Assembly (NCBI GenBank): GCA_035290125.1
Contig: DATDVI010000021.1
Coordinates: forward strand, 1 to 52,248
DNA length: 52,248 bases
From: Candidatus Anderseniibacteriota bacterium
GTDB lineage: Bacteria; Patescibacteriota; Andersenbacteria; UBA10190
Reading direction: 5' to 3'
The translations under genes were made by a program, and so were the position numbers. Numbering within the stretch: position 1 is the first letter of the stretch; each line of letters begins with the position of its first letter. Under the pieces are notes generated by a model. It had not been told where the DNA came from and did no database searches. It saw nothing but the letters and a program-made list of their open reading frames with translations. Shown here one piece after another: positions 1,147 to 28,736 of this stretch.

Positions 1147-1507
1147 AGTTGCCGTCTTTTTTCTCTCGAGGTTGCCAGTAGGTGGGCGCTGCGGTATCGA
1201 TGTTGGTTGACAGGAATTTCTTGCGAGCGATTTTGGCTAAGATTCCAATAGGCATCACGATTACATAGTACACGATGGCGAGTATCAGCCGACTCATGAT
1301 CTCTCCCAGTAGGCGGGCTACGCCCATCCAGGCCCGGTAAACGGGTTGCAGAGCAGCAGGGGCCAGCAGGCCAGTGAGAAATAGCACCACGCCAGCTAAG
1401 AGTAGTAGCCAGCCGAGCGAGCGCTCTCGCCAGAGCAGCAGCGTTCCCAGCAGGCAGAATGCTATTCCCACTGTATGGCTAAATTGTGTTACTTCATCCT
1501 TAGGCAT
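1130..1507 (-). CDS. SxtJ-like small membrane protein
   Basis: 125 aa, ATG at 1507. Three hydrophobic helices (IAFCLLGTLLLW, WLLLLAGVVLFLTGLL, LILAIVYYVIVMPIGIL). It starts 6 nt after the stop of a carbamoyltransferase, the pairing known from sxtI-sxtJ. Family call is from memory, not searched. Confidence 0.45.
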   Translation of the reverse strand: MPKDEVTQFSHTVGIAFCLLGTLLLWRERSLGWLLLLAGVVLFLTGLLAPAALQPVYRAWMGVARLLGEIMSRLILAIVYYVIVMPIGILAKIARKKFLSTNIDTAAPTYWQPREKKDGNYERQF

Positions 1508-1513
1508 ATTTTG

Positions 1514-3987: not shown

Positions 3988-3992
3988 AGCAC

Positions 3993-4802
3993 TTAGTCTG
4001 GGCGACGCTGCATGACGAGCAGCATAATATGCCCGGCCAAGGGGGCCGCCAGCTCCGTAATAGCTGCGCCGGTGACCCGCGCCAGCTTGCCACGCGAACG
4101 CAACAGTTTTTGCAAGGCTGGCCGCGCCAGCGGGACTTCAGTACTTATTCCTTTGAGGCCGTCGACCGCTTGCTGATGCCGCAGCTGAAACCCTAATTTT
4201 TCGAGGTCGTGGCGCACGTGGAGGTAGTTCAGGATAAACTGGTAAAAATCACTGGGTTCTTTTTGGGGTTGGCTGGCTTTCGTGTAGGCGCGTAATTTTA
4301 TTTTCAATTTGCGCAGGGGGTTTAAGTAGGGAAACGTCATAAACAGATACCCACCGGGCGCAATGACGCGCCTGGCCTCAGTCAGTATTTCTTGGTAGCC
4401 ATTAAAAAAGTGCTCGATGACGCCGAGGGACCAATACGCTGAAAAATAGTTATCAGGAAACGGTAGTTTGCGTACATCGGCCACTGACAGTTGTAAAGCC
4501 GGGAATGCTTGTTCGGCTTGAGTGATCGTCTGCTGCGCAAAATCGATGCCATAGGCATCGTAGCCCTCTCGCTGGTGGCTAAGGACGACTGCCCCGCGCC
4601 CGCAGCCGGCGTCCAGCATGCGCACGTGTGGACCGGGCGGCACAAAACGCTTGGTTAAACCTACGTAAAATGTATTGCGGCTTTCTTCTTCGATTTGCTG
4701 ACGCATATCGTCTACTTGCCACAACGAGTCCCAAAAGAGAGCCGTGGGAGCCTGCTGCCGCATCACTAAGCGGCCGCTGCGAGCGTCGTACTGGGTAGTC
4801 AT
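3993..4802 (-). CDS. Class I SAM-dependent methyltransferase
   Basis: Motif I MLDAGCGRGAVVL, then YGIDFA and WSLGVIEHF. The ORF track extends to a TTG at 4841; alternative ATGs are at 4835 and 4802. I chose 4802 because it avoids a 5-prime overlap with the divergent gene. The start remains uncertain. Confidence 0.75.
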   Translation of the reverse strand: MTTQYDARSGRLVMRQQAPTALFWDSLWQVDDMRQQIEEESRNTFYVGLTKRFVPPGPHVRMLDAGCGRGAVVLSHQREGYDAYGIDFAQQTITQAEQAFPALQLSVADVRKLPFPDNYFSAYWSLGVIEHFFNGYQEILTEARRVIAPGGYLFMTFPYLNPLRKLKIKLRAYTKASQPQKEPSDFYQFILNYLHVRHDLEKLGFQLRHQQAVDGLKGISTEVPLARPALQKLLRSRGKLARVTGAAITELAAPLAGHIMLLVMQRRPD

Positions 4803-4833
4803 GCTGCTACGATGGTAGTATGGAGGTATGAGC

Positions 4834-5658
4834 ATGGGCAAGCCGCTGGTTACGGTACTACTGGCAACGCGGAATGGAGAGCGGTTGATTGCCCAGGCGG
4901 TTGCCAGTGTGTTGAAGCAGAGCTATGAGCATTTTGAGTTAGTTATCATTGATGACGCATCGACCGATACAACAGCTCAGGTTGTTGCTGGAATTAAAGA
5001 TCGGCGAATTCGATTCCTGCATAACGACCAGCCGCTGGGGCTAACGCGCTCACTCAACCGGGGGCTGGTGGCGGCACGCGGCGAATTTATCGCCCGGATC
5101 GATGATGATGATATTTGGGTGGGCAACGAAAAATTGACCAAGCAGGTCGATTTTCTCCTCGCACACCCGCGTGTTGGTTTGGTGGGGACACAAAATGTTG
5201 TGGTGAGCAGCACGGGCTGGGGATTGTACTGGTGGCGTGTGCCGACCCACGACGCGGGAATTCGGCAGACGCTGCTGCGGCGTAACCATTTTGTTCATTC
5301 AGGTGTGATGATCCGGCGTGCGGCGCTGCGCGAAGTAGGGCCCTATGGGCCGAATATTCGCTACGCGCAGGACTACGAGCTCTGGCTGCGCATTGGCAAG
5401 CGCTGGCAGTTGGCGAACCTGCCGGATGTATACGTTAAGCAACGGCTCAACCAGGGCGGGGTGACCAGCCGTAACCGGTGGACGCAGTTTATTTCTTTTC
5501 TGAAAACGGCGTGGTTGTATCGGCACGATTACCCAGGCTTCTGGCGCAGCGTGCCGGTGTATCTGCGGGAGGCGGCTTTAAATCTGCTGCCGCGGCGGTT
5601 TTTCCATCGCTTTGGCGTCTGGCTGCGCCCCTGGCGCATCACCGGCAGCACCCACTGA
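4834..5658 (+). CDS. Glycosyltransferase family 2
   Basis: VTVLLATRNGERLI...YEHFELVIIDDASTDTT...IARIDDDDIW (GT-A DxD region). GGAGG at 4822-4826 sits 7 nt before ATG 4834; ATG 4828 is too close to the SD. Paralogue of 9258..10082. Confidence 0.85.
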   Translation: MGKPLVTVLLATRNGERLIAQAVASVLKQSYEHFELVIIDDASTDTTAQVVAGIKDRRIRFLHNDQPLGLTRSLNRGLVAARGEFIARIDDDDIWVGNEKLTKQVDFLLAHPRVGLVGTQNVVVSSTGWGLYWWRVPTHDAGIRQTLLRRNHFVHSGVMIRRAALREVGPYGPNIRYAQDYELWLRIGKRWQLANLPDVYVKQRLNQGGVTSRNRWTQFISFLKTAWLYRHDYPGFWRSVPVYLREAALNLLPRRFFHRFGVWLRPWRITGSTH

Positions 5659-5690
5659 AGTAAGAAAATTTTCTCCGAGTGTTAACGCAC

Positions 5691-5718
5691 CCCCTCGATA
5701 TTACGTAATATCGAGGGG
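5691..5718. repeat. Family A perfect palindrome, copy A1 (28 bp CCCCTCGATATTACGTAATATCGAGGGG)
   Basis: Read directly from the sequence. Perfect 14+14 inverted repeat, 33 nt after the GT2 stop (5658). Left flank TTAACGC is shared with A2; right flank AAAGAGAATC resembles that of A3. Confidence 0.95.
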
Positions 5719-5841
5719 AAAGAGAATCTTTGCTTGGATTGACCTCAGCTGGAGATCAGTTCAAGAAAGGTGGCGAATTTGGATGTTCCGGTATCGCCTT
5801 TGTGCTAATGCACACCGGGTTTTTCACATCGAAGCTTGCCG

Positions 5842-6084
5842 TTAGGAAGTGAATAGAGTTGGGAATTGCCGTTTCAACATGCCTTGTGTCATTTGAAGAG
5901 CAGCAAGACCTTGGCACAACGCATCCAGACTTGCCTGGTGTGCAAGCGGTATATGTGCTCCACAGGCTTCCAATTCTTGTCTGACCAACTTAACACGCTC
6001 TTCAAAATCACTAATACGACCTTGAAGGTCCTCCATGAATAAGCCCAACTTTTCAATTACTTCATTCTCTGTGAACTGTAGCAT
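5842..6084 (-). CDS. Hypothetical small helical protein (80 aa)
   Basis: The ORF track gives 5842..6171 from a TTG. A TTGACA-N17-TATTAT promoter at 6171-6199 would place the TSS downstream of that TTG. ATG 6084 (MLQFTENEVIEKL...) with a weak GAAAGG upstream is therefore the likely start. The region is AT-richer and the protein has no motif I recognise. Confidence 0.4.
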   Translation of the reverse strand: MLQFTENEVIEKLGLFMEDLQGRISDFEERVKLVRQELEACGAHIPLAHQASLDALCQGLAALQMTQGMLKRQFPTLFTS

Positions 6085-6170
6085 TTTCGAGGTGCCTTTC
6101 TTTGTGGCCTGCCGCTTATCCAGCAAGATGCTGAATCTACGGCCTGCTTGGTTGTAATGTGCAGGCTGCA

Positions 6171-6199
6171 ATAATATATCATCTTTAAACTTCTGTCAA
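6171..6199 (-). promoter_or_regulatory. Sigma70-type promoter candidate (TTGACA-N17-TATTAT)
   Basis: Minus strand: TTGACA at 6199..6194, 17-nt spacer gaagtttaaagatgata, TATTAT at 6176..6171. About 80 nt upstream of ATG 6084. Confidence 0.55.
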
Positions 6200-6253
6200 G
6201 TGCTTCTGGTAATAAACAGCTCAATATAGCTATTAAAATTCTGACCGAACTGA

Positions 6254-6268
6254 ATCACCTAAGGTGAT
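6254..6268. promoter_or_regulatory. 15-bp palindrome ATCACCT-A-AGGTGAT (possible operator)
   Basis: Perfect 7+7 inverted repeat, about 55 nt upstream of the -35 at 6199 and 17 nt from palindrome A2. Confidence 0.25.
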
Positions 6269-6285
6269 GTCTTTAACGCTATATC

Positions 6286-6313
6286 CCCCTCGATATTACG
6301 TAATATCGAGGGG
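6286..6313. repeat. Family A perfect palindrome, copy A2 (28 bp)
   Basis: Sequence identical to A1. It lies 15 nt beyond the stop (6328) of the minus-strand GT4. Left flank is TTAACGC-tatat. Confidence 0.95.
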
Positions 6314-6327
6314 ATTTGGGGCAGTGG

Positions 6328-7314
6328 TTAGGCTCGGGTGAGGATGAGGAGATAACTGGCGACCATATTGGCGAGAGAAAATTTTGATTCGGCCGAGGCG
6401 CGGGCGGTGGTGCTATAGGCGGACAGGTTTTGTGCGACTTTCTGGATGGCGCTGGAGAATGCTTGGGCATCGGTCTGCTTAAATTCATAGCGGTCATAGA
6501 ACGGATTGTGCGGCCGCAGGGGCACAAGCTCGCCGGAGCGGCCAGGCTCAACAAGCTCGGGTAATCCCCCGCGGGCATAGGCGACGACGGGCAAGCCGGC
6601 TGCTAAGGCTTCCAGCACGCTGTTCGGGCAGGCAGAGAGCTGCGAGAAGACGTAGATATCGTGCTGTTGTAACGAGTGGCTGATATCTTGGTGCTTGACC
6701 GCGTCTTGGTAGTATATACGCGGGTTCGTTTTGAGCTGGCGAATAAGCTCGTGCAAACGTGGCGTGTGTGGCCCAATGATTGTCAGGGTAAAATTTGGCG
6801 GGAGCTGTAACAACGCATCGCGAAGCGGGGCGATTTGCTCAGGATCCCGAAAGCTAGCGTGTGTGACGAGGCGAATAAGGTAATTGTCGTGGGGTGGGCG
6901 CGCGAGTGCTGGGGTAGCGACGCCATTGCGAATTACTGATGACGCACTGTGCGGCTGGCCCAGCATCGTGTGGCAGGCCTGGCGACTAAATTCGCTCTGG
7001 TACACCACATGATCGGCGAAGTAGTTGTGAATAATTCGCTTGTGCAGATCTTTGAGGCGATACGTCTGCGAGTGCGGCCAGGGGAGAGCTGGATAATAGA
7101 CGCCATCGAGTCGCTGGATGATTTTCTTGCCTCGCGCCCGGGCGTAGAGCGGATAGATTAGGGAACAGGCGTCGATGATAAACAAGCAGTCAAAATTGGG
7201 TGTGAACGTGTGGGTGACGGCATGTCCTCGTTTTTTTAAAGCGGTCGTTAGGGCGGTCAAGAATGTTATGGGCCCGCCAACGGGGAACAGCTGGTAGGGG
7301 ATGAATATTTTCAT
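6328..7314 (-). CDS. Glycosyltransferase family 4 (GT-B)
   Basis: 328 aa. C-terminal EX7E-type block NSVLEALAAGLPVVAYARGGLPELVEPGRSGELV. ATGA overlap with the upstream gene at 7311-7314. Confidence 0.8.
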   Translation of the reverse strand: MKIFIPYQLFPVGGPITFLTALTTALKKRGHAVTHTFTPNFDCLFIIDACSLIYPLYARARGKKIIQRLDGVYYPALPWPHSQTYRLKDLHKRIIHNYFADHVVYQSEFSRQACHTMLGQPHSASSVIRNGVATPALARPPHDNYLIRLVTHASFRDPEQIAPLRDALLQLPPNFTLTIIGPHTPRLHELIRQLKTNPRIYYQDAVKHQDISHSLQQHDIYVFSQLSACPNSVLEALAAGLPVVAYARGGLPELVEPGRSGELVPLRPHNPFYDRYEFKQTDAQAFSSAIQKVAQNLSAYSTTARASAESKFSLANMVASYLLILTRA

Positions 7315-8309
7315 GGTTCAGGCTGGGTGATGACGTTGCGACACGCATTAGTCAGCTGCTGGCCGAACGCAGCGTACGTGTAGCGCTCGGCCTGCTCGCG
7401 AGCGACGCGTTCGTATTGTTCGCGTCTGCCTGGATTAGTGTTTAGTTCTTGGATGGCTGCCCGTAACGCGGCGACATCACCGGCCGGGACCAGCAGGCCC
7501 TGCTGGTCATGTTGGACATAGTCATTGACGCTGGCTTGATCGGTCGTAATAACCGCTTTGCCCAGCGCGAGCGCCTGGACAACGGTCGTCTGTCCGTGCG
7601 GGTGCACGCCGGCAGTAAGTGGGACGATAACGAACAGCGCGTGGTGCATGGCGGCCAGAAAATCTGTTTGTGACATGGTCCAAAAAACGTGGCAATTGTC
7701 CGGCAGAGGTTGATCGTAGTTCAGTGTGCGGCGAGAGAACGTAATGATCATCAGTGAAATTGGCAGCGAGCGTGCAGCTTCAATGAGGGTGGGAAAATCC
7801 CGACCCTCACCGCCGCCGCTAAAAATATACGGCGACTGTACGCTTTGCAAGGCAGCTGGTAGTGCACTCGTGCGCGCAGCGACGAGGTTGCCAGGGGCAG
7901 GGAGGGGGATGACGACACTTTTTCGGCGTGTTTCCGGTGAACGCAGGGTTAGGGTGCTTGAGTCGTGATCAATGACGAGATCGGCATAGCGGACGCGTGC
8001 ATCATGAAAAATGCTGTAGTTGTGACAGATGATTTTGAGCCTGGCGGGGAGTAGGTGATATTTTTTCAGGCTTAGAAACCACGGAGCCAGGCCATAGGCA
8101 GCGCCGATGAATAATATCGTGGGCCGATCTTGCCAGATGCGCCAGTATGTCTGTAGGGCGAGAAGAGCCATATTAAGCAGGCTACTCATTTTTTTAACAT
8201 AGCGGCGACCATACAGTATCTGCGGAAATATTTGGCAGTCCGGTGTTGCCCAGAAGCCCTTGGCGAACGTCACCACGAGTATGTGGTCAAGTTGAGAGGC
8301 TGTTTTCAT
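7311..8309 (-). CDS. Glycosyltransferase, GT-B fold (GT1/GT4-like)
   Basis: 332 aa, ATG at 8309. C-terminal block HGQTTVVQALALGKAVITTDQASVNDYVQHDQQGLLVPAGD, typical of the GT-B nucleotide-sugar binding domain. Confidence 0.7.
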   Translation of the reverse strand: MKTASQLDHILVVTFAKGFWATPDCQIFPQILYGRRYVKKMSSLLNMALLALQTYWRIWQDRPTILFIGAAYGLAPWFLSLKKYHLLPARLKIICHNYSIFHDARVRYADLVIDHDSSTLTLRSPETRRKSVVIPLPAPGNLVAARTSALPAALQSVQSPYIFSGGGEGRDFPTLIEAARSLPISLMIITFSRRTLNYDQPLPDNCHVFWTMSQTDFLAAMHHALFVIVPLTAGVHPHGQTTVVQALALGKAVITTDQASVNDYVQHDQQGLLVPAGDVAALRAAIQELNTNPGRREQYERVAREQAERYTYAAFGQQLTNACRNVITQPEP

Positions 8310-12176: not shown

Positions 12177-13511
12177 ATGGATCTCAAGATTACTGGCATT
12201 GAGACGTTCGACGTTCGCTTTCCAACGGCTCTCGAGGGAGTGGGATCAGACTCTATGCACCCCGATGGTAACCATTCGGCGGCTTGCGTTGTGCTCACCA
12301 CGAACGAACCTCACCTCCAGGGCTGCGGGCATGTTTTTACGATAGGCAGCGGCAATAACATTGCAGCGGCCACTATAGGCGAATGGGCGGCTCGTCGCGG
12401 TATTACAAATATGCCGTTGAGTCAATTTACCCGGGACCCTGGCCATTTTTGGGATCGTATGGCTAATGACAGTCAACTGCGCTGGTTGGGGCCGGAGAAA
12501 GGCGTGTCGCATATGGCCATGGGGGCGATCATAAACGCACTGTGGGATTTGTGGGCAAAACGTGAGGGGAAACCGCTCTGGAAACTGCTCTGTGACATGC
12601 CTCCGTCGGCGATCGTGCGTTGTGTGCCGTTTCGCTATATTAGCGACGTGCTAACACCGCGAGTGGCGATCGACATGCTTGTTGAGCTTGCTCCCACTCG
12701 CCTGGATCGGCTGGCGCATCTCCTGGAGCATGGGTATCCAGCTTACACGACCTCAACTGGTTGGCTGGAATTCAGCACAGAGCAAATTGAGCAGTTGTGC
12801 CATGAGGGCCTGGCAGCGGGCTGGCGTCACTTTAAGATCAAAGTTGGTCGAGATCTGGACTCTGATATTTCTCGCTGTGATGCTGTTCGTAGCGCAATCG
12901 GGAACGATGCTGTGTTGATGGTCGATGCTAATCAGATCTGGGAAAATGCACAACAAGCAATTATCTGGATGCTTGAACTGGCACCATCCCGACCACTGTG
13001 GATTGAAGAGCCAACAAGTCCCGATGATATTCTGGCACACAAGCAGGTAGCAGACGCACTGCACCCGCACGGTATCAAAGTGGCCACGGGCGAGCACTGC
13101 CATAACCGGGTTATGTTCAAGCAGCTTATGCAGGCCGGGGCAATGGATTTTTGCCAAATTGATGCCTGCCGCTTGGGGGGAGTTAATGAGGTGCTTGCCG
13201 TGTTACTTATGGCAGCTAAGTTTGAGATCCCGGTTTGTCCTCATGCCGGCGGTGTCGCGTTATGTGAGCAGGTGCAGCATTTTGCCGCATTTGATTACGT
13301 GTGTGCCAGCGGTTCGCTGGAGGGCAGAATCGTGGAGTATGTTGATCACCTCCACGAACATTCTGCTCACCCGGCTATCGTGAAAGATGGACATTATCGT
13401 CTGCCGACTGCACCTGGCTTTAGCACGGAGATGCGAGTGGAATCGGTGGAGAGGTTCTTGTACCCTACTGGAGAAGTTTGGCAGAAGCTTGGCGTGCAAA
13501 CTACCAGTTAA
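12177..13511 (+). CDS. fucD: L-fuconate dehydratase-like enzyme (enolase superfamily, MR/MLE subgroup)
   Basis: 444 aa; GGGAGA SD before ATG 12177. Blocks match my memory of Xanthomonas FucD: FDVRFPT, DSQLRWLGPEKGV.HMA, GYPAYTTSTGWL, IEEPTSPDDILAH, TGEHCHNRVMFKQLMQAGAMDFCQID, and GGVNEVLAVLLMAAKF..PVCPHAGGV. Not searched. Confidence 0.75.
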   Translation: MDLKITGIETFDVRFPTALEGVGSDSMHPDGNHSAACVVLTTNEPHLQGCGHVFTIGSGNNIAAATIGEWAARRGITNMPLSQFTRDPGHFWDRMANDSQLRWLGPEKGVSHMAMGAIINALWDLWAKREGKPLWKLLCDMPPSAIVRCVPFRYISDVLTPRVAIDMLVELAPTRLDRLAHLLEHGYPAYTTSTGWLEFSTEQIEQLCHEGLAAGWRHFKIKVGRDLDSDISRCDAVRSAIGNDAVLMVDANQIWENAQQAIIWMLELAPSRPLWIEEPTSPDDILAHKQVADALHPHGIKVATGEHCHNRVMFKQLMQAGAMDFCQIDACRLGGVNEVLAVLLMAAKFEIPVCPHAGGVALCEQVQHFAAFDYVCASGSLEGRIVEYVDHLHEHSAHPAIVKDGHYRLPTAPGFSTEMRVESVERFLYPTGEVWQKLGVQTTS

Positions 13512-13569: not shown

Positions 13570-14592
13570 ATGATGAAACGGATGCATGTTTTAGTGACCG
13601 GCGGAGCGGGGTATAAGGGTGCCGTGCTGGTGCCCAAGTTGCTCGCGGCCGGGCACCAGGTGACGGTACTGGACTGGTATCTATATGGGGATGTTGTTTT
13701 GGCTCCTCACGCTGGCCTCAAGCAGCTCAAAGGCGATATCCGTGATATGCAGAGAGTACGGGAAAGCTTAACCGATGTGGATACGGTGATTCACTTGGCT
13801 TGCATTTCTAACGATCCCAGCGTGGAGCTGGATCCAGCCTTAAGTAAATCGATTAATCTTGATGCCTTTTGGCCGCTGGTGCAGCTGAGTAAAGCAGTTG
13901 GCGTCACTCGGTTCATTTTCGCTGCCAGTTCTAGTGTGTATGGCGTTAGTGACGCGCTGGAGGTAACCGAGGAACACCCCCATGTGCCGATTACTGACTA
14001 TAACCGCTACAAGAGCATGTGTGAGGATATTTTGTGGGAAGAGCAAGCAGATAATTTTACCGTTGTGTCGATTAGGCCGGCGACCGTGTGCGGGTATTCG
14101 CCGCGTCTGCGGTTAGATTTAACGGTGAATATTCTAACTAACCACGCGGTGAATAAACAGTTGATCACGGTTTTTGGCGGCGAGCAAAAGCGGCCGAATA
14201 TTCACATTGAAGATATTACGGATTTATACGTCGATTTGTTGCAGGTGCCAGCCGAAAAAATCGCGGGGCAGGCCTTTAACGTTGGCTACGAGAATCATCG
14301 GGTTAAAGATCTAGCCCAGATTGTTAAAGCCAAGGTCGAAGAGCTGATGCCGGAGCTGGGTGAGATTGGCGTCACGACAACAGCGTCAGACGATATTCGA
14401 TCTTATCATATATCGTCGGAGAAGATTAAGCGGGTGCTGGGCTTTGTGCCGCGGCGGGGGATCGAGGACGCGGTCGCTGATCTGGTAGCCGCTTTTCAGG
14501 CGGGCAATATTCCGAACTCGCTGACGGATCCCAAGTATTTCAATATTAAGATGATGCAGACACAGCCTGCACGAGTAGTTTATGGAAAATAG
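13570..14592 (+). CDS. NAD-dependent epimerase/dehydratase family protein (extended SDR)
   Basis: 340 aa. VLVTGGAGYKGAVLV Rossmann motif, ASSSSVYG, YNRYKSMCE (YxxxK). Alternative ATGs at 13573 and 13582. Confidence 0.8.
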   Translation: MMKRMHVLVTGGAGYKGAVLVPKLLAAGHQVTVLDWYLYGDVVLAPHAGLKQLKGDIRDMQRVRESLTDVDTVIHLACISNDPSVELDPALSKSINLDAFWPLVQLSKAVGVTRFIFAASSSVYGVSDALEVTEEHPHVPITDYNRYKSMCEDILWEEQADNFTVVSIRPATVCGYSPRLRLDLTVNILTNHAVNKQLITVFGGEQKRPNIHIEDITDLYVDLLQVPAEKIAGQAFNVGYENHRVKDLAQIVKAKVEELMPELGEIGVTTTASDDIRSYHISSEKIKRVLGFVPRRGIEDAVADLVAAFQAGNIPNSLTDPKYFNIKMMQTQPARVVYGK

Positions 14593-15619: not shown

Positions 15620-16670
15620 TCGTGTTATCAGTTGTGCCGAAGCAATTCGAGAAGCCACTGAGCAGGCTATGGCCTTTGATGATCGGGTAATTGTTATTGG
15701 TGAGGGTGTGCCGGATCCGAAAGGCATTTTTGGCACGACGCTAGGTTTGCGGGAGAAATTTGGATCGAAGCGAGTGTTTGATATGCCGGTAGCTGAAAAT
15801 GGCCTGACTGGAATATGTGTTGGCGCGGCACTGGCGGGCCTGCGGCCAATCATAACTCATCAGCGAGTTGATTTTTCGCTGTATGCTCTCGAGCAGATTA
15901 TCAATAATGCAGCTAAGTGGCGCTTTATGTTTGGGGATCTCCAGACCGTACCACTGGTGGTTCGTATGATCATTGGTCGGGGGTGGGGACAGGGCGCACA
16001 GCACTCACAGGCGTTGCAGGCACTGTTTGCGCATGTGCCAGGGCTCACGGTGGTTATGCCGGCGCTGCCGGCTGATGCCAAGGGTTTGCTGCTCGCCAGT
16101 ATCGCGAGCGAGGAGCCAGTGATTTTTCTGGAGCACCGCTGGCTGCATGGTCTGACTGGGCCAGTTCCTGCGGCACCGTATGAAATGCTGCTGGGGAAAG
16201 CAGCGGTGCGCCGGGCCGGGGAGGATGTGACGATCGTCGCCAGCTCGTATCTGACAGTCGATGCGTTGCGCGCGGCTCAGGAGCTCACCAAAATTAATGT
16301 GCAGGCTGAAGTTATCGATTTGCGGACAATTAAGCCGTTGGATCTGAAGACTATCTTGCGATCGGTGCGAAAAACCAGGCGCTTGCTGGTGGCTGATTCG
16401 AGCTGGGCCAGCTTTGGTGTGGCCAGCGAGGTTATTGCACGAGTTGCAGAGTCGGGCTTTAGCTTGAAAAGCGCGCCACAGCGAGTTACGCTGCCCGATA
16501 TGTCGACTCCTTCGGCGTCATCGCTGACGCGTCATTTCTACCCCGATTACCGGACAATTATGTCCCGAGTTTTGGTTATGCTTGGTCGGCCGACGCGCGA
16601 CTCGGTACCACTTGCTCCTCTTGAGGCTCCACACGACGTGCCGGACGTGTCTTTTACCGGGCCATTCTAA
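15609..16670 (+). CDS. ThDP-dependent dehydrogenase E1 component, beta subunit (transketolase-like Pyr and C-terminal domains)
   Basis: MSDNRVISCAEAIREA..., VIVIGEGV, VFDMPVAENGLTGICVGAALAGLRPI, IGRGWGQGAQHSQ, EVIDLRTIKPLD. ATG 15609 overlaps the alpha stop by 11 nt. The ORF-track TTG at 15555 lies inside the alpha gene. Confidence 0.85.
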   Translation: MSDNRVISCAEAIREATEQAMAFDDRVIVIGEGVPDPKGIFGTTLGLREKFGSKRVFDMPVAENGLTGICVGAALAGLRPIITHQRVDFSLYALEQIINNAAKWRFMFGDLQTVPLVVRMIIGRGWGQGAQHSQALQALFAHVPGLTVVMPALPADAKGLLLASIASEEPVIFLEHRWLHGLTGPVPAAPYEMLLGKAAVRRAGEDVTIVASSYLTVDALRAAQELTKINVQAEVIDLRTIKPLDLKTILRSVRKTRRLLVADSSWASFGVASEVIARVAESGFSLKSAPQRVTLPDMSTPSASSLTRHFYPDYRTIMSRVLVMLGRPTRDSVPLAPLEAPHDVPDVSFTGPF

Positions 16671-17329
16671 TGAATCGTTTAGGCACAGAGTTGGGCGCGG
16701 CGGGTTACTTGAGTGGTGTCCAGAAAATTTTGAACGCCATTGATTTTTCAGCTCTAGAGCGTTTCTCGACCTTGTTACACCGAGCTTGGCAAGAAAGCCG
16801 AAGTATTTTTATTTTCGGCAACGGCGGCTCGGGAGCAACCGCCTCACACTTTGCTGAAGATCTGTGCCATGGCACGGTGGCGCCGGAGAGGCGAAGCGAC
16901 GACGAGTTCAAGCGTTTTCAGGCGATGAGCTTGACGGACAACGTGCCCTGGGTGCTGGCGTTGGCTAATGACCTGGGCTACGAGAGAATTTTTGTTGAGC
17001 AGTTGCGCAGCTTGGCTAAGGCGGGCGACGTAGCGATTGCTATTAGTGGCTCGGGCAATAGCCTGAATGTTTTGCGGGCGATCGAGTGGGCGAATGCGCG
17101 AGACTTAGCGACGGTGGGTATCACCGGCTTTGACGGCGGCGAGTTGAAAAAGATTCAGCAGCATGGCGTGCACGTGCCAGTTGATGATATGCCGCTGACG
17201 GAGAGCGTGCACGGCGTGCTATTGCACTGGGTGGTGGATGATTTGTACGCCAGGCTGAATAGTGTGGGGCGGTATGTCGAAGTAAATAAAGATCCCGCCG
17301 TTGTTGGAACGGCGGGGTTTGGTGATTAG
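16670..17329 (+). CDS. gmhA: SIS-domain D-sedoheptulose-7-phosphate isomerase
   Basis: 219 aa, TAATG junction with the previous gene. IFIFGNGGSGATASHFAEDL and AIAISGSGNSLNVLRAI are the GmhA/DiaA-type SIS signatures. Confidence 0.75.
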   Translation: MNRLGTELGAAGYLSGVQKILNAIDFSALERFSTLLHRAWQESRSIFIFGNGGSGATASHFAEDLCHGTVAPERRSDDEFKRFQAMSLTDNVPWVLALANDLGYERIFVEQLRSLAKAGDVAIAISGSGNSLNVLRAIEWANARDLATVGITGFDGGELKKIQQHGVHVPVDDMPLTESVHGVLLHWVVDDLYARLNSVGRYVEVNKDPAVVGTAGFGD

Positions 17330-17332
17330 GGT

Positions 17333-18592
17333 TCAGAAGACGTACACCGGGTCGCGCTGGCCGTGCGGTTTGATCCGTGGGTCTACGTCAAGCGGGATGT
17401 TCAGGACGCCGAGGCGCTGGAAGGGCAGATAGCTGACCATTATCGCCGAGGTATAGTGGCGGTCTTTGGTGCGCACCACGTCGATAGCACATTTTATTTC
17501 GTTGCCCTCAGCGCTGGGCAGTAACATGTATTTTGTTCTGCTCGGCAGTCGTTGGCCGCGCGCATCGGCTAAGGGGTTATGCTGATGGGGGTAGATCACC
17601 TCGTCTGGCTCGAGCACTGCAATAATCTCACCCAGATTTTCAATCACAGTCTGGCGCGCTTGTTGTGACGGTACTGGTGAGCGCAGGTTGTGCACTTCCC
17701 AGTTCGGCTCGCCGTGAGCCAGCAGTATAACTGTTTTCGGGTTCCAGTTGTTGCTCCGCCCGACGTACTTCACGGCTTCGGCTAGACGCTCGACGCTTTC
17801 ATGGTCGTAGCAGGCTAATTCCCAGTACGGTGCTGACACAACGAGGGCTGTGGCAGTTTCAGTGATAGCGATCTTGTCATGAAACGTGATGCCTTGGCGG
17901 CGGTAGAAGGGGACGGTGTCGAAGACGTCGATATGCTTGCCCCAATTCTCTTGACGATTATTTTCCACATTATCCCAGTTGCCACCGACCATGATGACTT
18001 TCGTACCGGCTGCCTGAATGGGCTTAAGGGCTTCGGCGAGTTTTTTCGCTTCAGCTTCGATATCAGCGGCCGTCGCTTGGCGTACTTCTCGCGGCAATTC
18101 CAGGTGCCAGGAGCCAAAGTAATCGCGCTTGGCAGCGTTGCGGATCGCGCCAGCGACTTCGCGCTGACTCGTTTGGTTGGCCTTGGTCATAGCTTCTATT
18201 GGGAACATGCCACTCAGCTCATAGACATAGCCCATCAACTCCAAGAGGCCTGCGCCAAGTGTTTGATCAGGTTTGCGCGGGCAGTGGCCGACGAAGTTAA
18301 GTAGTTCTTCGTCTGCTATTGGCTTTTCGTTTGGCGTGCCGATGCCGAGCTGGTTATGGGCGCGGTTGAAGACGCATTCGTAGAATAGCGTTTTCAAGTG
18401 CTCAAAGGGCTGCGAGCCGGTGACATCACCGCCGAAGAAGAGGTAGTGGGGCGGGTTGTCGGCGACTCGTTTGAGCAGCCATAAGAACTCATCGGTGATG
18501 GCGTGGACGCAGCCGATGAACATCAGCCGATCGCATTTCTCCCAGGGGTCGATGAAGTTATCGAACAGATCAGCGTTGGTGCTAGCAGACAT
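17333..18592 (-). CDS. Divergent calcineurin-like metallophosphoesterase
   Basis: Motif series in the canonical order but degenerate: FIGCVHA (DxH with D to C), FFGGDVTG (GD), VGGNWDN (GNHD with H to W), LLAHGEP, YPHQHNP (GHxH-like). ATG 18592 is preceded by AGGAAG. The ORF-track TTG 18643 is part of a TTGACA hexamer. Confidence 0.5.
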   Translation of the reverse strand: MSASTNADLFDNFIDPWEKCDRLMFIGCVHAITDEFLWLLKRVADNPPHYLFFGGDVTGSQPFEHLKTLFYECVFNRAHNQLGIGTPNEKPIADEELLNFVGHCPRKPDQTLGAGLLELMGYVYELSGMFPIEAMTKANQTSQREVAGAIRNAAKRDYFGSWHLELPREVRQATAADIEAEAKKLAEALKPIQAAGTKVIMVGGNWDNVENNRQENWGKHIDVFDTVPFYRRQGITFHDKIAITETATALVVSAPYWELACYDHESVERLAEAVKYVGRSNNWNPKTVILLAHGEPNWEVHNLRSPVPSQQARQTVIENLGEIIAVLEPDEVIYPHQHNPLADARGQRLPSRTKYMLLPSAEGNEIKCAIDVVRTKDRHYTSAIMVSYLPFQRLGVLNIPLDVDPRIKPHGQRDPVYVF

Positions 18593-18656
18593 GGCAATTC
18601 TTCCTGCCCTAAGGGCATTGGAGGAGAGGAAACTAATTGTCAACGAACAATGTAGT

Positions 18657-18685
18657 AGTATCGAAAATTATCGGTGGACTGTCAA
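18657..18685 (-). promoter_or_regulatory. Sigma70-type promoter candidate (TTGACA-N17-GATACT)
   Basis: Minus strand: TTGACA at 18685..18680, 17-nt spacer, GATACT at 18662..18657. About 60 nt upstream of ATG 18592. Confidence 0.4.
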
Positions 18686-18728
18686 TTGTACCAGCGTAAA
18701 TTCTAGCTGCTCGTCTGTGCTTTGTTCT

Positions 18729-18754
18729 CCCTCGATATTACGTAATATCGAGGG
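18729..18754. repeat. Family A palindrome, copy A3 (26 bp core CCCTCGATATTACGTAATATCGAGGG)
   Basis: Perfect 13+13 inverted repeat. The outermost pair is T/G, a wobble if transcribed. It lies 44 nt upstream of the -35 at 18685. Confidence 0.95.
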
Positions 18755-18780
18755 GAAAGATAAGAATCAGTGTCTGCGGC

Positions 18781-18806
18781 ACATCGACGCATCAACGCGT
18801 CGATGT
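18781..18806. repeat. Family B 26-nt hairpin repeat, copy B1 (ACATCGACGCATCAACGCGTCGATGT)
   Basis: 10-bp stem ACATCGACGC/GCGTCGATGT with a 6-nt loop. Flanks gc...aaaa. A near-identical copy is inverted at 31678-31703. Confidence 0.9.
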
Positions 18807-18842
18807 AAAATTATAAGCCAGTAAGTTGCAGCAGTTTTGCGG

Positions 18843-18873
18843 AAAAAATAAAACCGGCCGTTTTGCGACCGGG
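18843..18873 (-). terminator. Rho-independent terminator
   Basis: Minus strand reads CCGGTCG-CAAAA-CGGCCGG then TTTTATTTTTT. It lies 42 nt after the stop (18915) of the IMPase-like gene. The single non-Watson-Crick pair is G-U only in the minus-strand transcript. Confidence 0.8.
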
Positions 18874-18914
18874 TGAGACCTTACTTACGCCCCGGTGGTG
18901 TAAGTATGGTTGAG

Positions 18915-19793
18915 TTAGCTTTGGAACTTGGGGTTGTCCCAGAAATTCTCAGCGAAGTCGTACGCGGACGTGAGATTGAGGATATCCTGACCGATTTCTT
19001 CGCTGCTGGCGGCGATGACGACCTGGGGAATGCGGCACGTGTTGAATGGCTGGCCGTCGGCTGAGGCGATGAATCCGCCAGCTTCCTCGACGGCGAGTAG
19101 TCCTGGCGTGTCCCACAGTTTGCCGGCGATAACGCAGGCAGCCAGGGTGCCGAGAACAACGCCGGAGATCGCAGCGATGTTTGAGTTATAGCATACGTAG
19201 CCGCCCGGGTGCTGGGTGTAGAGGATCAGATTGAGCAGCTGGTCGAAGCTGGACGGAATGTCTTTGTGCCTGACCAGGTAGATCATTGATATCTCAATGT
19301 TCTTGGTGTCGGTGAGGCGGTGTCGGGTACCGTTCACGTAGCAGCCTTCGCCTTTTTTGGCCGTGATCATAAGATCCTGGCGCGGCAGGTACATCATGCT
19401 GCGGGTGAGCGTGCCGTCCTCGACGGTGCCGGCAATGTGTCCATAGTTGGCGCCGCCGTAACGGTTCCCGGCAATCATGACACTGTTGTCGAACTCGAAT
19501 GTGGCGTCGAGGTCATCAACGACAATGTACGTGCCGCCATGGAGAGTGTTTTGCAATGCGGCAAGGAATTTGCGTTTGGGTCCACCCGTGCGGTTTTCTT
19601 CAGCGGCGATGGGAAACTGAGGGAGCTTATCTGCAAATATTTTCGCCATTGCCTCACCAGCGTCCAGGTCGGCTTGGGTGGCGAAATCATCTGGGCTCCT
19701 CTTGTCGACAACTTTGGACGCCTTGCCTTGCTGAGTAAAGGATATGCTGCCCGCGATTTTGCCGGCTTCTTCCAGAACTTTTAGCACTTTCAT
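18915..19793 (-). CDS. Inositol-monophosphatase-fold sugar-phosphate phosphatase (IMPase/FBPase/CysQ superfamily)
   Basis: 292 aa; GGAG SD before ATG 19793. PIAAEEN (metal-binding EE), IVVDDLDATFEF (variant of DPxDGT), and LWDTPGLLAVEEAGG (WDxxxGxxxxxEAGG). Confidence 0.7.
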   Translation of the reverse strand: MKVLKVLEEAGKIAGSISFTQQGKASKVVDKRSPDDFATQADLDAGEAMAKIFADKLPQFPIAAEENRTGGPKRKFLAALQNTLHGGTYIVVDDLDATFEFDNSVMIAGNRYGGANYGHIAGTVEDGTLTRSMMYLPRQDLMITAKKGEGCYVNGTRHRLTDTKNIEISMIYLVRHKDIPSSFDQLLNLILYTQHPGGYVCYNSNIAAISGVVLGTLAACVIAGKLWDTPGLLAVEEAGGFIASADGQPFNTCRIPQVVIAASSEEIGQDILNLTSAYDFAENFWDNPKFQS

Positions 19794-19886: not shown

Positions 19887-20873
19887 ATGTACAAAGTAGC
19901 GGTTATTGGCTGTAATTCATTTACTGGTGGGTACGTGGTGGATGAGCTGCTGGCGGCAGGTGAGTATCAGGTACTGGGCATTGATCGGGAGGAAAAAGGG
20001 CGTTTGTTTTTGCCGTACGTGCAGAATGATTTACGCCGTTTCCGGTTCGCTCAGATGGATGTGAATAAGGATATGGCGGACCTGCTCGCGTTATTGCAAT
20101 CGGAGCAGCCGGATTATGTTATGAACCTGGCAGCGCTCTCAGAAGTAGCGCCAAGTTGGGAGCATCCCGAGCAATGGATGCAGACTAATGTGGTGGCGTT
20201 GACTATCCTGGTTGATGGTCTGCGGCATCTGCCTGTATTAAAAAAATTCGTCCAAATATCTACGCCGGAAGTTTATGGCTCAGTAGCTGGCCGAGTACAA
20301 GAAGACGCGGCGTTAAAGCCTTCGACGCCCTATGCGGTTTCTAAGGCAGCTTTTGATTTGTTGCTTCTTGCGTTCGTTAAGCAGTATGCGTTTCCGGCGG
20401 TGCTGATGCGCGCGGCTAATGTCTATGGGGCACATCAGCAGTTGTTTAAAATTGTGCCGCGGACGATTATTTATGAGAAACTAGGCCGGAAATTGCCGCT
20501 GCACGGCGGTGGGAAAGCAACGCGGGCATTTATTCATGGGCGGGATGTGGCTCGTGCTTACGTGGCCGCCCTGACCTTGGGCAAAGTGGGCGAAGCGTAT
20601 CATGTGGCGCCCGAGACAACGGTAACTATCCGGGAGTTGGTGCAGCGAATTTGTGATCTGGTTGGTGAGGATATATCGGCCGTGGTTGAGGACACGCCGG
20701 CCCGACCAGGGCACGACGCGGTTTACTCTCTGGATGCGAGTAAGGCTAAGCGCGATCTTAGATGGCAGCCGGAGGTGACTCTATCGGCTGGACTAGCTGA
20801 AGTTATCGCTTGGGTTGATACGAATTGGGCAGAGATTCGCGAGGAGTCGCTGGAGTACGTTCATCGCGCTTAG
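19887..20873 (+). CDS. NDP-sugar 4,6-dehydratase-like extended SDR
   Basis: 328 aa. VAVIGCNSFTGGYV, ISTPEVYG, YAVSKAAFDLL (YxxxK), and RAANVYGAHQQLFKIVPRTI...LPLHGGGKATRAFIHGRD, which parallels the RfbB/DmhA-type layout. Confidence 0.7.
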   Translation: MYKVAVIGCNSFTGGYVVDELLAAGEYQVLGIDREEKGRLFLPYVQNDLRRFRFAQMDVNKDMADLLALLQSEQPDYVMNLAALSEVAPSWEHPEQWMQTNVVALTILVDGLRHLPVLKKFVQISTPEVYGSVAGRVQEDAALKPSTPYAVSKAAFDLLLLAFVKQYAFPAVLMRAANVYGAHQQLFKIVPRTIIYEKLGRKLPLHGGGKATRAFIHGRDVARAYVAALTLGKVGEAYHVAPETTVTIRELVQRICDLVGEDISAVVEDTPARPGHDAVYSLDASKAKRDLRWQPEVTLSAGLAEVIAWVDTNWAEIREESLEYVHRA

Positions 20874-25898: not shown

Positions 25899-27202
25899 TG
25901 AGGTGGCGCAGGCAGATGACTCTCGCCACAGCAGCGGCGCACCAGCATCTTTTCGGGCAGGAGTTGACGGTGGCAATGAAAAATTTCCTCCAGAATTTGT
26001 CGCTTTCGCTCACCGGCTATGTGATCGCAAACAGTTTGATTTTTGTATCGATTGTGGTGGCGGGGCGCCTGCTGGGGCCATCTCAGTTCGGGCAGTATGC
26101 TTTAACGATTGCGCTGTCTCAGATTCTTATTATTCCGATGCTCCCCGGTATTGATGTCGCCGCGATGCGCGAGGTGGCTTTGCACCCCCAGCAACTCCCC
26201 CAGATCGCTGCCTCGGGGTTGTTTTTGCTCGCGGCCTGCACGCTGGCGACGTGGATTGGTGTGCTACTGGTCGGGGATACTGCTGCACGTTTACTGGGCC
26301 TTGGGGGAAGTGTTGTGCGTATTGCGGCTCTGATTGCACTCGCGATGGCGGGGAAAACGTTCTGGGATAGCATTGTGCGTGGTAGCGGTGCTTTCCGCTT
26401 ACAGCTCTGGGTGCGCATTGTTGATGCAGCGCTTATTCTATTCATTTTTCTGGCTGGGTACGCCTGGCTTGGTGTTCATGATTGGCGGTTACTCGCGCTG
26501 GGCGTGACTGGCGGGGCACTTGCTAGCGCGTGGATTTTTTACTCCTGGGTGGGCCGGGGTCAGTTGCGCTGGGCTGGCGTTACCAGTGCCGTGACGCGAC
26601 GGCTGGTGCGCTATGGCTGGGCCGGCGTGATCGGGGCCGTAGCTGGTATTTTACTCGCGAGCGCCGACAAAGTTTTATTGGGCAACTTCTTGGGCAGTCG
26701 AGGCCTGGGTGTGTATCAGGCGTATTACTTTGCTTCAGTTCAGCTGACAGGTCAGCTCGCGCTCATTTTCCTTAATGTTTTCTTTCCGGCAGCCGTTGGG
26801 CAGTCTGACCTCGCTATAGTCATTCGAAAATTGGATCGCCTGGTCGTTCGGCTGGCGGTGCCTGCGATCATCGGAGTCAGCTTGTTTATTCTGGCTACGT
26901 TGTGGCTCTTCAGTTCGGCCTATGAGCGGAATCTGATATTAGTTCTTCTGATGAGTGTATATGCCGTGCTGTGGTTTATTATGATGACGTACTGGACGCT
27001 GATTAACACAACCGGTCCCCGTGGCATTCTCTATGCTTCGCTCAATGCACTTGTCGCTGGTGTGATGTACCTGCTCCTCGTGCAGCAGCTGCTGCCGCTG
27101 CTGGAATTGTATGCCCCGCCGATTGCTTTTTTGGCTGCTTTTGGTTACATGGGCGGGGCGATTTGGTTGTGGCGCGTTCGGTTCCGCTTTACACTGCGCT
27201 GA
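25898..27202 (+). CDS. Wzx-type oligosaccharide flippase (MOP superfamily polysaccharide biosynthesis protein)
   Basis: About 12 predicted hydrophobic helices. The N-terminal region KNFLQNLSLSLTGYVIANSLIFVSIVVAGRLLGPSQFGQYAL is typical of Wzx. TAATG junction at 25898. ATG 25976 (MKNFLQ) is an equally plausible start. Confidence 0.65.
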   Translation: MRWRRQMTLATAAAHQHLFGQELTVAMKNFLQNLSLSLTGYVIANSLIFVSIVVAGRLLGPSQFGQYALTIALSQILIIPMLPGIDVAAMREVALHPQQLPQIAASGLFLLAACTLATWIGVLLVGDTAARLLGLGGSVVRIAALIALAMAGKTFWDSIVRGSGAFRLQLWVRIVDAALILFIFLAGYAWLGVHDWRLLALGVTGGALASAWIFYSWVGRGQLRWAGVTSAVTRRLVRYGWAGVIGAVAGILLASADKVLLGNFLGSRGLGVYQAYYFASVQLTGQLALIFLNVFFPAAVGQSDLAIVIRKLDRLVVRLAVPAIIGVSLFILATLWLFSSAYERNLILVLLMSVYAVLWFIMMTYWTLINTTGPRGILYASLNALVAGVMYLLLVQQLLPLLELYAPPIAFLAAFGYMGGAIWLWRVRFRFTLR

Positions 27203-27203
27203 T

Positions 27204-28736
27204 ATGAGCAGGGGGGTTGAGCATAAGATTAAAACGTTGCCATATCTGGCAGCTGAGGTCCGCCGCCTGCAGCGGGCGGGTAAAACGGTGGTGCAGTGTC
27301 ACGGTGTGTTTGATCTGATTCACCCGGGGCACCTGCGCCATTTTGCCGCGGCACGGCGGGAGGGCGATGTGCTGGTTGTTACCCTCACGGCCGATCGCTA
27401 CGTTAAGCGTGGTCCGGGGCGCCCGCTCTTTAGTGAGCACTTACGCGCGGAATCTTTGGCAGCGCTTGAGCTGGTTGATTTTGTTGCTATTGTTGCTTCT
27501 CCGACTGCGGTGGAGTGCCTGGAAACTCTGCGGCCGAATGTCTACGTGAAAGGGCCTGATTATCGGCAGGCGCGGGATGACGTGACGGGCATGATCACCG
27601 CCGAGAAGCAGGCGGTGGAGCGGCATGGCGGACGGCTGCACATCACCGATGATATTGTGTTCAGCTCAACGCAGCTCATCAATGCTGAGCTTGATGTTCA
27701 GCCACCGCTGATCCGTCGCTACTTGCAGCGGCTCGCGAACGATTATTCTGTTGGCACAATAACGCAGCTGCTGCAGAGGCTTGAGCAGCTACGCATCCTT
27801 GTTATTGGCGATGCGATTATTGACCAGTACGATTACGTACGGCCCCTGGGTAAATCGGGCAAAGAACCGCTGGTGGTGAGTAAGTTTGTGGAGCGAGAAT
27901 CTTTTGCTGGCGGGGTACTGGCTACGGCTACTCACGTGGCAAGTTTATCCCGAAACGTCCGACTTGCTACCCTGCTCGGACGTCGGCATAGCTGGCGTGA
28001 GTTTATTGACGAGAAGTTATCGCCGCGCATCAACCCGAAGTTTTTCTATCGGCGTGGTGCTGTGACGACCGTGAAGCGGCGCTACGTGAGCGAGGGGCGC
28101 GCGCAGAAAATGTTTGAAATTTACTTCATCGATGACACGCTGCTTGATCGTACTGGGGAGACCGCAGTTATTCGCTGGCTCGCAAAAATGCAGAAAAATC
28201 TTGATCTGATTATTGTCAACGATTTTGGCCATGGCTTTATCACTGAGGGTATTATTGCTGCTATCCGTCGTAGTCGCAGGAAGCTTGCGATTAATGTCCA
28301 GACCAATGGCGCTAATGCTGGGTTTAATTTGGTTACGAAATATCCTCGAGCAGATTTTGTCTGCGTGGATGAGGTGGAGCTCCGTTATGCTGCCCATGAT
28401 CGTGATGGTGACCTCAAGCATATTATGAAGAAGATTAGTCGCCAACTGAAGTGTGAATTATTGGTAACTACGCGGGGTCGGAAGGGTTCACTCAGCTGGT
28501 CGCGGAGCGAGGGGTTTATAGCAACACCCGCCTTTGCGACGCAGGTAGTTGATGCCGTGGGGGCAGGAGATGCTTTTTTCGCATACGCGGCCCCGTGCTT
28601 CGCGGCTGGTTTTCCTCCTACTTTAGTGCCGTTTGTTGGCAACGTAGCTGGTTCTTTGGCAACGCAAATTGTGGGTAACCGCAGTGCCGTTGAGCTGCCC
28701 GACGTGTTGAAGTTTATTGGGCGTTTACTGAAGTGA
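27204..28736 (+). CDS. Bifunctional cytidylyltransferase-like nucleotidyltransferase / PfkB-family sugar kinase (HldE-like, reversed domain order)
   Basis: 510 aa from ATG 27204 (TGATATG junction with the flippase stop). The N-terminal domain has VVQCHGVFDLIHPGHLRHF (HxGH) and VTLTADRYV. The C-terminal domain has ILVIGDAIIDQY and VVDAVGAGDAFFA (PfkB signature). Confidence 0.8.
   Translation: MSRGVEHKIKTLPYLAAEVRRLQRAGKTVVQCHGVFDLIHPGHLRHFAAARREGDVLVVTLTADRYVKRGPGRPLFSEHLRAESLAALELVDFVAIVASPTAVECLETLRPNVYVKGPDYRQARDDVTGMITAEKQAVERHGGRLHITDDIVFSSTQLINAELDVQPPLIRRYLQRLANDYSVGTITQLLQRLEQLRILVIGDAIIDQYDYVRPLGKSGKEPLVVSKFVERESFAGGVLATATHVASLSRNVRLATLLGRRHSWREFIDEKLSPRINPKFFYRRGAVTTVKRRYVSEGRAQKMFEIYFIDDTLLDRTGETAVIRWLAKMQKNLDLIIVNDFGHGFITEGIIAAIRRSRRKLAINVQTNGANAGFNLVTKYPRADFVCVDEVELRYAAHDRDGDLKHIMKKISRQLKCELLVTTRGRKGSLSWSRSEGFIATPAFATQVVDAVGAGDAFFAYAAPCFAAGFPPTLVPFVGNVAGSLATQIVGNRSAVELPDVLKFIGRLLK

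Follow-up and report, generated by a model that had tools for sequence, protein, structure and literature searches.

In the nucleotide-heptose route formed by GmhA, HldA, GmhB and HldC, the GmhB step is to our knowledge the only dephosphorylation required between the sugar-phosphate 1-kinase and the nucleotidyltransferase. Contig DATDVI010000021.1 of Candidatus Anderseniibacteriota bacterium (assembly GCA_035290125.1), analysed here over its whole length of 52,248 nucleotides and called the window below, encodes a GmhA-like isomerase, a kinase/nucleotidyltransferase fusion and a heptosyltransferase-like protein, with genes for a metallophosphoesterase (MPE) and an IMPase-family phosphatase next to the isomerase gene and no open reading frame (ORF) for a HAD-IIIA or GmhB-like protein within the 52 kb. 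Does one of these two phosphatases take the place of GmhB, as an earlier note on this DNA suggested, and if so in which pathway?

We find that the genome has a canonical gmhB on another contig and that the window genes form a second, divergent module. This set of genes is found again at about 10 independent loci, so that the neighbourhood is more than a chance arrangement, and the IMPase and MPE pair very probably belongs to the module. From gene context we tentatively favour a reading in which the IMPase-like protein is the module's equivalent of GmhB and the MPE carries out a different step.

A canonical GmhB is encoded elsewhere in the genome

The host is a small Patescibacteria genome of the candidate phyla radiation (CPR), with an assembly (G000) of 848 kb in 86 contigs that is 77% complete; a metagenome-assembled genome from its family bears the label Saccharibacteria. 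The window is contig C21 of this assembly and, from the ORF map and family scans, is a single large glycan-biosynthesis island within it. These scans place the isomerase, MPE-like, IMPase-fold, fusion and heptosyltransferase-like genes at the positions that the earlier note had given, and its observation that no HAD-family phosphatase is encoded holds for the window. The same does not hold for the genome: a genome-wide search finds HAD-IIIA matches on contig C5, and only there in the assembly. This contig carries, in order, RmlC, a split transketolase, a transaldolase, RmlD, a GmhA-HldA fusion, a stand-alone GmhB and an HldC-GmhB fusion. The stand-alone GmhB scores 191.6 bits against the curated cut-off of 178 for NF006506, and both it and the second GmhB domain, which is fused to HldC, lie inside a complete GmhA/HldA/GmhB/HldC cluster. 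The complete genome of a relative, G140, has unfused GmhA, HldA, GmhB and HldC genes on its contig C6, and GmhB-like genes are found in 32 of 35 genomes of the same Patescibacteria family. The canonical nucleotide-heptose pathway with GmhB is therefore a family trait, and for the same reasons the isomerase and fusion of the window are a divergent paralogous set and not the sole pathway. Calls of "no gmhB" made from one locus are unsafe, and IMPase or ComB genes that lie beside GmhA/HldE-like genes may be misnamed.

The fusions on contig C5 (locus L003, positions 4751-8005) are themselves unusual, joining GmhA to HldA in 539 residues and HldC to GmhB in 384 residues, with the stand-alone GmhB between them and thus two GmhB domains in the cluster.

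The phosphatase genes recur with a conserved sugar-nucleotide module

The window genes that enter the argument are the following, with strand and family assignment; ThDP stands for thiamine diphosphate, NDP for nucleoside diphosphate and GT for glycosyltransferase.

13570-14592, plus strand: extended SDR (epimerase/dehydratase family), PF01370
14582-15619, plus strand: ThDP-dependent E1 alpha, PF00676
15555-16670, plus strand: ThDP-dependent E1 beta, PF02779 and PF02780
16670-17329, plus strand: GmhA-like SIS isomerase of a divergent module type, best family match GmhA (TIGR00441)
17333-18643, minus strand: MPE-like ORF of 436 codons, convergent with the SIS gene, its stop 3 nt from the SIS stop
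17333-18592, minus strand: MPE gene (protein P0001) from the probable start Met18, about 419 residues, calcineurin-like but atypical
18593-18914, minus strand: region between the IMPase and MPE genes, with a terminator-like hairpin and a promoter-like site (consensus scan)
18915-19793, minus strand: IMPase-family phosphatase of 292 residues (protein P0002), PF00459 Inositol_P
19887-20873, plus strand: RmlB-like NDP-sugar 4,6-dehydratase (TIGR01181), divergent from the IMPase gene
27111-28736, plus strand: permuted HldC-HldA fusion, cytidylyltransferase-like at the N terminus and PfkB at the C terminus, likely start near 27204
47599-48774, minus strand: GT9 heptosyltransferase-like protein, TIGR02195

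Scanning metagenome and genome contigs with an alignment of the MPE family yielded 22 loci, some of them duplicates of one another, which were annotated against the window proteins and against Pfam; a search of genome contigs with the IMPase protein alone found no related loci. The conserved module consists of the fusion, an SDR resembling the one at 13570, the SIS isomerase and the E1 alpha/beta pair, often with an RmlB-like gene next. The SDR is the most constant neighbour of the fusion gene, with orthologues of 49-74% identity in all module loci, including L044. The E1 pair, which has no accompanying E2 or E3, is a conserved member that is co-located in G140, G309, L019, L022, L028 and L048, and orthologues of the SIS isomerase are found in module loci L019, L022, L023, L024, L028, L029, L044 and G244.

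In G140 the same island is inverted, with the order RmlB-like, IMPase-like (43% identity), MPE-like (42%), E1 beta, E1 alpha and SDR; the fusion, Wzx, a zinc-dependent alcohol dehydrogenase, methyltransferases and AsnB lie nearby, and the cluster has no SIS gene. The RmlB-like gene adjoins the IMPase/MPE pair also in G140, L019 and G309, and the pair is kept in L019, L020 and L031. A second arrangement, of Gottesmanbacteria type (L022, L028, L029/L048 and L030), is an operon with the order MPE, ComB-like (PF04029), fusion, SDR, SIS, E1 alpha and E1 beta. In L022 and L028 the MPE and ComB-like genes and then the module genes lie on one strand with mostly short gaps, and L048 has ComB-like, MPE, a two-gene insert and then the same module genes. 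Such inserts between the MPE and fusion genes occur in Gottesmanbacteria loci L024/L032/L046 (9216-9844) and L029/L048 (10984-11645); that of L024 comprises a 79-residue ORF and a 130-residue PIN-domain protein and looks like a toxin-antitoxin pair, and that of L029/L048 has ORFs of 88 and 132 residues.

Across 401 genomes of the phylum, which are interrelated so that their counts are not independent, the permuted fusion occurs in five. Four of these five have the MPE family (in G309 as a 120-residue remnant only), and none of the other 396 does. G309 keeps the fusion, E1 alpha/beta, SDR and dehydratase genes but has neither an IMPase gene nor a module SIS gene; a canonical GmhA/GmhB/HldC cluster is present elsewhere in the genome. 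The MPE remnant of G309 occupies the syntenic position, flanked by the RmlB-like and E1 beta genes. There, a 127-residue ORF (L041, contig C25 of G309, 1511-1894) matches only residues 74-192 of the MPE, its helical insert, and looks like a decayed gene.

The in-cluster phosphomonoesterase varies by lineage

The phosphoesterases found beside the module differ between groups of loci.

Window, G140 and L019: long MPE (410-440 residues); IMPase-like protein of lineage A
L020 and L031: long MPE; IMPase-like protein of a second lineage, B, about 26% identical
L022, L028, L029/L048 and L030: short MPE (350-380 residues); ComB-family phosphatase, PF04029
G415 module and second G416 module: short MPE; no in-cluster phosphomonoesterase
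G244: no MPE; canonical-type IMPase (171 bits), two genes downstream of the module SIS gene
L044: MPE of 480 residues, heading a divergent SDR/DegT/split-transketolase operon; HAD GmhB-like protein

Neither the window nor any of the first 16 related loci yielded an ORF for a HAD GmhB-like protein, and L044 is the one exception in which a HAD gene accompanies the module. Its operon encodes the fusion, the SIS isomerase, the HAD GmhB-like protein directly after it, an NTP-transferase and a transaldolase. L044 (CAZXEC010000001.1) belongs to genome G417, a metagenome-assembled genome (MAG) of about 0.8 Mb that is labelled Gammaproteobacteria and carries this CPR-type module, with an SDR 50% identical to that of the window; this points either to a doubtful taxonomic label or to transfer of the module. 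Two Gottesmanbacteria genomes, G416 and G415, also differ. G416 has two modules and one ComB gene (L048, 9132-9863), and its assembly contains neither a HAD-IIIA protein nor a canonical GmhA. G415 has a module and a HAD GmhB-like gene adjoining a GT9 gene, with no ComB gene anywhere in the assembly.

This distribution is what leads us to the IMPase-like protein as the GmhB equivalent: the phosphomonoesterase within the cluster is a HAD, ComB-like or IMPase-like protein depending on lineage, with IMPase in three, and the G416 genome has the module without a HAD protein. The MPE is assigned another step because L044 has it alongside a HAD GmhB, G244 does without it, and its motif III has no general-acid histidine, as discussed below. 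The earlier suggestion that one of the pair replaces GmhB thus stands in part. The pair does recur with the divergent module, and its IMPase member is a candidate; against the suggestion, a GmhB is present elsewhere in the genome, and the coexistence of MPE and in-cluster HAD GmhB in L044 argues against the MPE and leaves the IMPase as the stronger candidate.

The IMPase-like protein retains the metal and catalytic residues of its superfamily

P0002 matches PF00459 with 66.8 bits against a gathering threshold of 27, and its metal and catalytic residues, Glu65, Glu66, the D93-x-x-D96-x-T motif and Trp227-Asp228, are invariant among its homologues (alignment A2). An AlphaFold2 model with a mean predicted local distance difference test (pLDDT) score of 77.5 has the alpha-beta-alpha-beta-alpha IMPase fold, and its best match is the Thermotoga IMPase TM1415 (2p3v), with TM scores of 0.70/0.80 and a Foldseek probability of 1.0. 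The protein therefore resembles the IMPase/FBPase superfamily members TM1415, SuhB, HisN and CysQ in fold, Pfam family and the metal-binding residues EE, D-x-x-D-x-T and WD, but it is only 16-21% identical to solved members, has DDLDAT in place of DPIDGT with a 9-residue insert after this motif, and ends in a conserved C-terminal NPKFQS tail. The subfamily is rare: there are five close homologues among 5.8 billion proteins, one of 400 other phylum genomes has a member, and all of the about six known members lie beside a Cys-type MPE gene, for some members by inference only. Family scans gave no HAD match for either P0002 or P0001, and P0002 reaches no equivalog model.

Two roles known in the superfamily were considered and rejected for P0002. 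A HisN role does not fit a family score of 43 bits, the best that was obtained, against a cut-off of 275, and for a CysQ/PAP-phosphatase role the score is likewise far under the cut-off, and the window genes that were scanned include neither a sulfotransferase nor a PAPS gene.

The metallophosphoesterase has a Cys-x-His motif and lacks the general-acid histidine

The MPE ORF is open to 18643, with the probable start Met18 at 18592. P0001 has no Pfam match of its own, but homologues of 42-44% identity match PF00149 Metallophos with 37-40 bits, where the threshold is 21.5. The PDB has no sequence match to the protein, even at a limit of E<=10. An AlphaFold2 model (pLDDT 86) matches metallophosphoesterases at a Foldseek probability of about 1.0; there are 66 PDB matches at E<=0.001, and among the matches listed all are MPEs. 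The TM scores of these matches are low because of a helical insert at about residues 78-211. The model has the beta-sandwich fold of MPEs, and the protein atlas agrees.

Residues G44-C45-x-H47, G72-D73, G221-N222-W223-D224, H310, H318 and H353-x-H355 are invariant in 18 homologues (alignment A1). Of the five MPE motifs, GD, H and HxH are thus invariant, but the D-x-H of motif I is C-x-H, with a cysteine in place of the first aspartate, and the GNH(D/E) of motif III is GNWD, with a tryptophan in place of the general-acid histidine. Within the MPE superfamily, Cys-x-His is the distinguishing mark of Dbr1 (PMC5113202). The window protein shares with Dbr1 the MPE fold and this invariant cysteine, and has no detectable sequence relation to it beyond the superfamily; Dbr1 has GNHE in motif III, and the window MPE is a bacterial protein encoded in a sugar-nucleotide operon and has the large helical insert. 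Dbr1 depends on its motif III histidine when the leaving group is poor, as an alkoxide is, and not when it is activated (PMC5113202). By analogy, since this histidine is missing, the substrate of the MPE family may be a diester or pyrophosphate whose leaving group is good, rather than a simple sugar monoester. A literature search returned nothing relevant linking GmhB with a metallophosphoesterase, heptose with IMPase, or heptose with Saccharibacteria.

A second MPE-like paralogue is encoded in L028 (8315-9796). It has 493 residues, is 25% identical to P0001 and has no Pfam match, and its gene lies directly upstream of the ComB-like gene and adjoins the short-form MPE gene.

A proposed pathway and its relation to known systems

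The three families for which the module gives its best profile matches, SIS, PfkB kinase and cytidylyltransferase-like, are those of the Escherichia coli HldE/GmhA pathway, and all module scores are far under the equivalog cut-offs. The SIS isomerase scores 102 bits against a cut-off of 209 for TIGR00441 (104 bits for NF010546), whereas the canonical GmhA domain on contig C5 scores 171-174 bits with the GmhA model, and we classify the window protein from its sequence as GmhA-like and not as an equivalog. The fusion scores 102 bits against 181.5 for rfaE_dom_II, 107 against 345 for rfaE_dom_I and 153 against 521 for the HldE model NF008454, and its domain order is the reverse of that in HldE, where the kinase is N-terminal and the adenylyltransferase C-terminal. 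Module-type SIS proteins keep GNGGS, His60 and His186, but have an aspartate in place of the catalytic glutamate of GmhA and a glutamate in place of its glutamine ligand (alignment A3), positions that we take to be those of the E. coli GmhA residues. The substrate or stereochemistry of the module SIS may therefore differ from that of canonical GmhA, and such a difference would explain a dedicated phosphatase. The module also differs from the HldE/GmhA pathway in its link to ThDP E1 alpha/beta, SDR and 4,6-dehydratase genes, and in being a paralogue, in a genome that also has the canonical pathway. NCBIfam has no equivalog match, from which the sugar product might be named, for the SDR (GalE scores 104 bits against a cut-off of 262), E1, zinc-dependent alcohol dehydrogenase or RmlD-like genes.

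In the proposed pathway, the SIS isomerase would convert a ketose phosphate, probably sedoheptulose 7-phosphate, to an aldose phosphate, and the PfkB domain of the fusion would phosphorylate C1. The IMPase-like enzyme would then take off the distal phosphate, the cytidylyltransferase-like domain would form the NDP-sugar, and the SDR, dehydratase, ThDP and methyltransferase enzymes would modify it. The Cys-x-His MPE would catalyse a different phosphoester hydrolysis in the same pathway, maybe of a pyrophosphate or another substrate with a good leaving group. The role proposed for the IMPase-like protein is like that of GmhB, the HAD-IIIA D-glycero-D-manno-heptose 1,7-bisphosphate 7-phosphatase, in removing a distal phosphate between a 1-kinase and a nucleotidyltransferase, and in L044 it is a HAD GmhB-like gene that directly follows the module SIS gene, within the operon that also contains the fusion. 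The window proteins do not have the HAD fold and instead have the IMPase and calcineurin-like MPE folds. ComB, the 2-phosphosulfolactate phosphatase family, has 2-phospho-hydroxyacids as its known substrates. Its gene lies directly beside the MPE gene in Gottesmanbacteria-type loci, as does the IMPase-like gene in the clade of the window; its fold differs from that of the IMPase-like protein, and it is not present in the genome of the window.

Alternative explanations

Several observations weigh against the IMPase-like protein as the GmhB equivalent. G000, G140 and G244 each combine an IMPase in the cluster with a HAD-IIIA phosphatase elsewhere, so that the complementary distribution is imperfect and the canonical GmhB could serve both pathways in these genomes. 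The IMPase/MPE pair is dispensable when canonical GmhA and GmhB are present, since G309 keeps most of the module without an IMPase, an intact MPE or the module SIS. The case with an in-cluster HAD is the single locus L044, and the case without a HAD protein is the single MAG G416, which may be incomplete. The counts come from related genomes, and the constancy of the MPE in the metagenome loci is partly a matter of ascertainment, as these loci were found via the MPE. Terminator- and promoter-like sites come between the IMPase and MPE genes in the window, where both genes also run convergently to the SIS operon. Finally, the kinase, nucleotidyltransferase and SIS scores lie far under their cut-offs, and the sugar is thus a putative heptose at most.

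In the main rival explanation, possible though in our view rather unlikely, the canonical HAD GmhB on contig C5, or its fused copy, serves both pathways, and the IMPase and MPE act on later or side intermediates of the modified sugar, such as a phosphate on the ThDP-transferred unit, a phosphorylated tailoring intermediate or a nucleotide by-product. The two GmhB domains on contig C5, one of them fused to HldC, the near universality of canonical GmhB in the family, the HAD genes of G000, G140 and G244, the retention of most of the module in G309 and the presence of an MPE together with a HAD GmhB in L044 would all fit this explanation. What it does not readily accommodate is G416, with its module and an assembly free of HAD-IIIA proteins, and the alternation of IMPase-like, ComB-like and HAD proteins as the in-cluster phosphomonoesterase, which fits one shared role.

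We regard it as improbable that the MPE, and not the IMPase, is the GmhB-equivalent bisphosphate phosphatase and that the IMPase and ComB-like proteins do something else. The MPE is the most constant phosphoesterase beside the fusion, SDR and SIS genes, in the 401-genome sample it occurs only in genomes that bear the fusion, and the G415 module and one of the two G416 modules have an MPE with no ComB or IMPase in the cluster. However, L044 has an in-cluster HAD GmhB in addition to its MPE, G244 has the fusion, SIS and IMPase genes with no MPE, and the missing general-acid histidine of motif III argues against a simple sugar monoester as substrate (compare Dbr1; PMC5113202). It is very improbable that the pair has nothing to do with the module and, as a housekeeping IMPase/SuhB plus some generic phosphodiesterase might, only happens to lie in a variable glycan island: the two genes do lie on the strand opposite the SIS operon with promoter-like and terminator-like sites of their own, but the conservation of their co-location across distant CPR lineages, in about 10 loci, weighs heavily against it, both subfamilies are extremely rare, and no IMPase-family gene was found in the related genomes G193 and G309, so that the IMPase is not a housekeeping gene in this lineage.

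With the IMPase-like protein as the GmhB equivalent, the module could be an undescribed CPR pathway to a heptose-type (or higher-sugar) nucleotide sugar, in which the bisphosphate phosphatase is interchangeably an IMPase, ComB or HAD protein and a new Cys-x-His MPE family, as an additional obligatory step, cleaves a phosphodiester or pyrophosphate before ThDP-dependent enzymes branch or extend the sugar by two carbons; we put this fuller scheme forward as a doubtful but possible one. If it is true, it would be a clear three-way non-orthologous displacement (HAD, IMPase and ComB) at one step of nucleotide-heptose synthesis, and would define, for CPR bacteria with their minimal genomes, a paralogous heptose-derived pathway encoded on surface-glycan islands. 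A bacterial MPE family with the Cys-x-His metal ligand described as the hallmark of Dbr1 would, moreover, gain a first biochemical context.

Transcription signals and other genes of the island

The MPE-like gene is convergent with the SIS gene across a gap of 3 nt, as the earlier note had described. Consensus matches on the minus strand comprise a terminator-like hairpin at 18872-18854, 3' of the IMPase gene, a promoter-like sequence, TTGACA-17-GATACT, at 18685-18657 ahead of the MPE start, and a terminator-like hairpin at 17316-17294, past the MPE stop and within the 3' end of the SIS gene. With a terminator-like hairpin and a promoter-like site between them, the IMPase and MPE genes are probably transcribed as separate units in the window. 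A hairpin-like repeat at 18781-18806 also lies in this intergenic region, between those two sites.

Between the RmlB-like gene, which scores 213 bits against the TIGR01181 cut-off of 365, and the fusion are genes for a GT2 protein, a PhyH-type oxygenase, an RmlD-like reductase, three methyltransferases, a zinc-dependent alcohol dehydrogenase and Wzx. Beyond the fusion are AsnB, many GT4 and GT2 genes, and then the GT9 heptosyltransferase-like gene, which scores 120 bits against a cut-off of 134.6 for TIGR02195. An enolase-superfamily gene resembling acid-sugar dehydratases lies beside the module at 12177-13511; it scores 129 bits against a cut-off of 500 with the L-talarate/galactarate dehydratase model and is missing from the syntenic G140 island. 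Where the window has the PhyH, RmlD-like and methyltransferase genes, the G140 island (L008, contig C5 of G140, 1494-4947) has genes for an acetolactate-synthase-type ThDP enzyme, an FkbM methyltransferase and a classical SDR, and this sugar island thus has two different ThDP systems.

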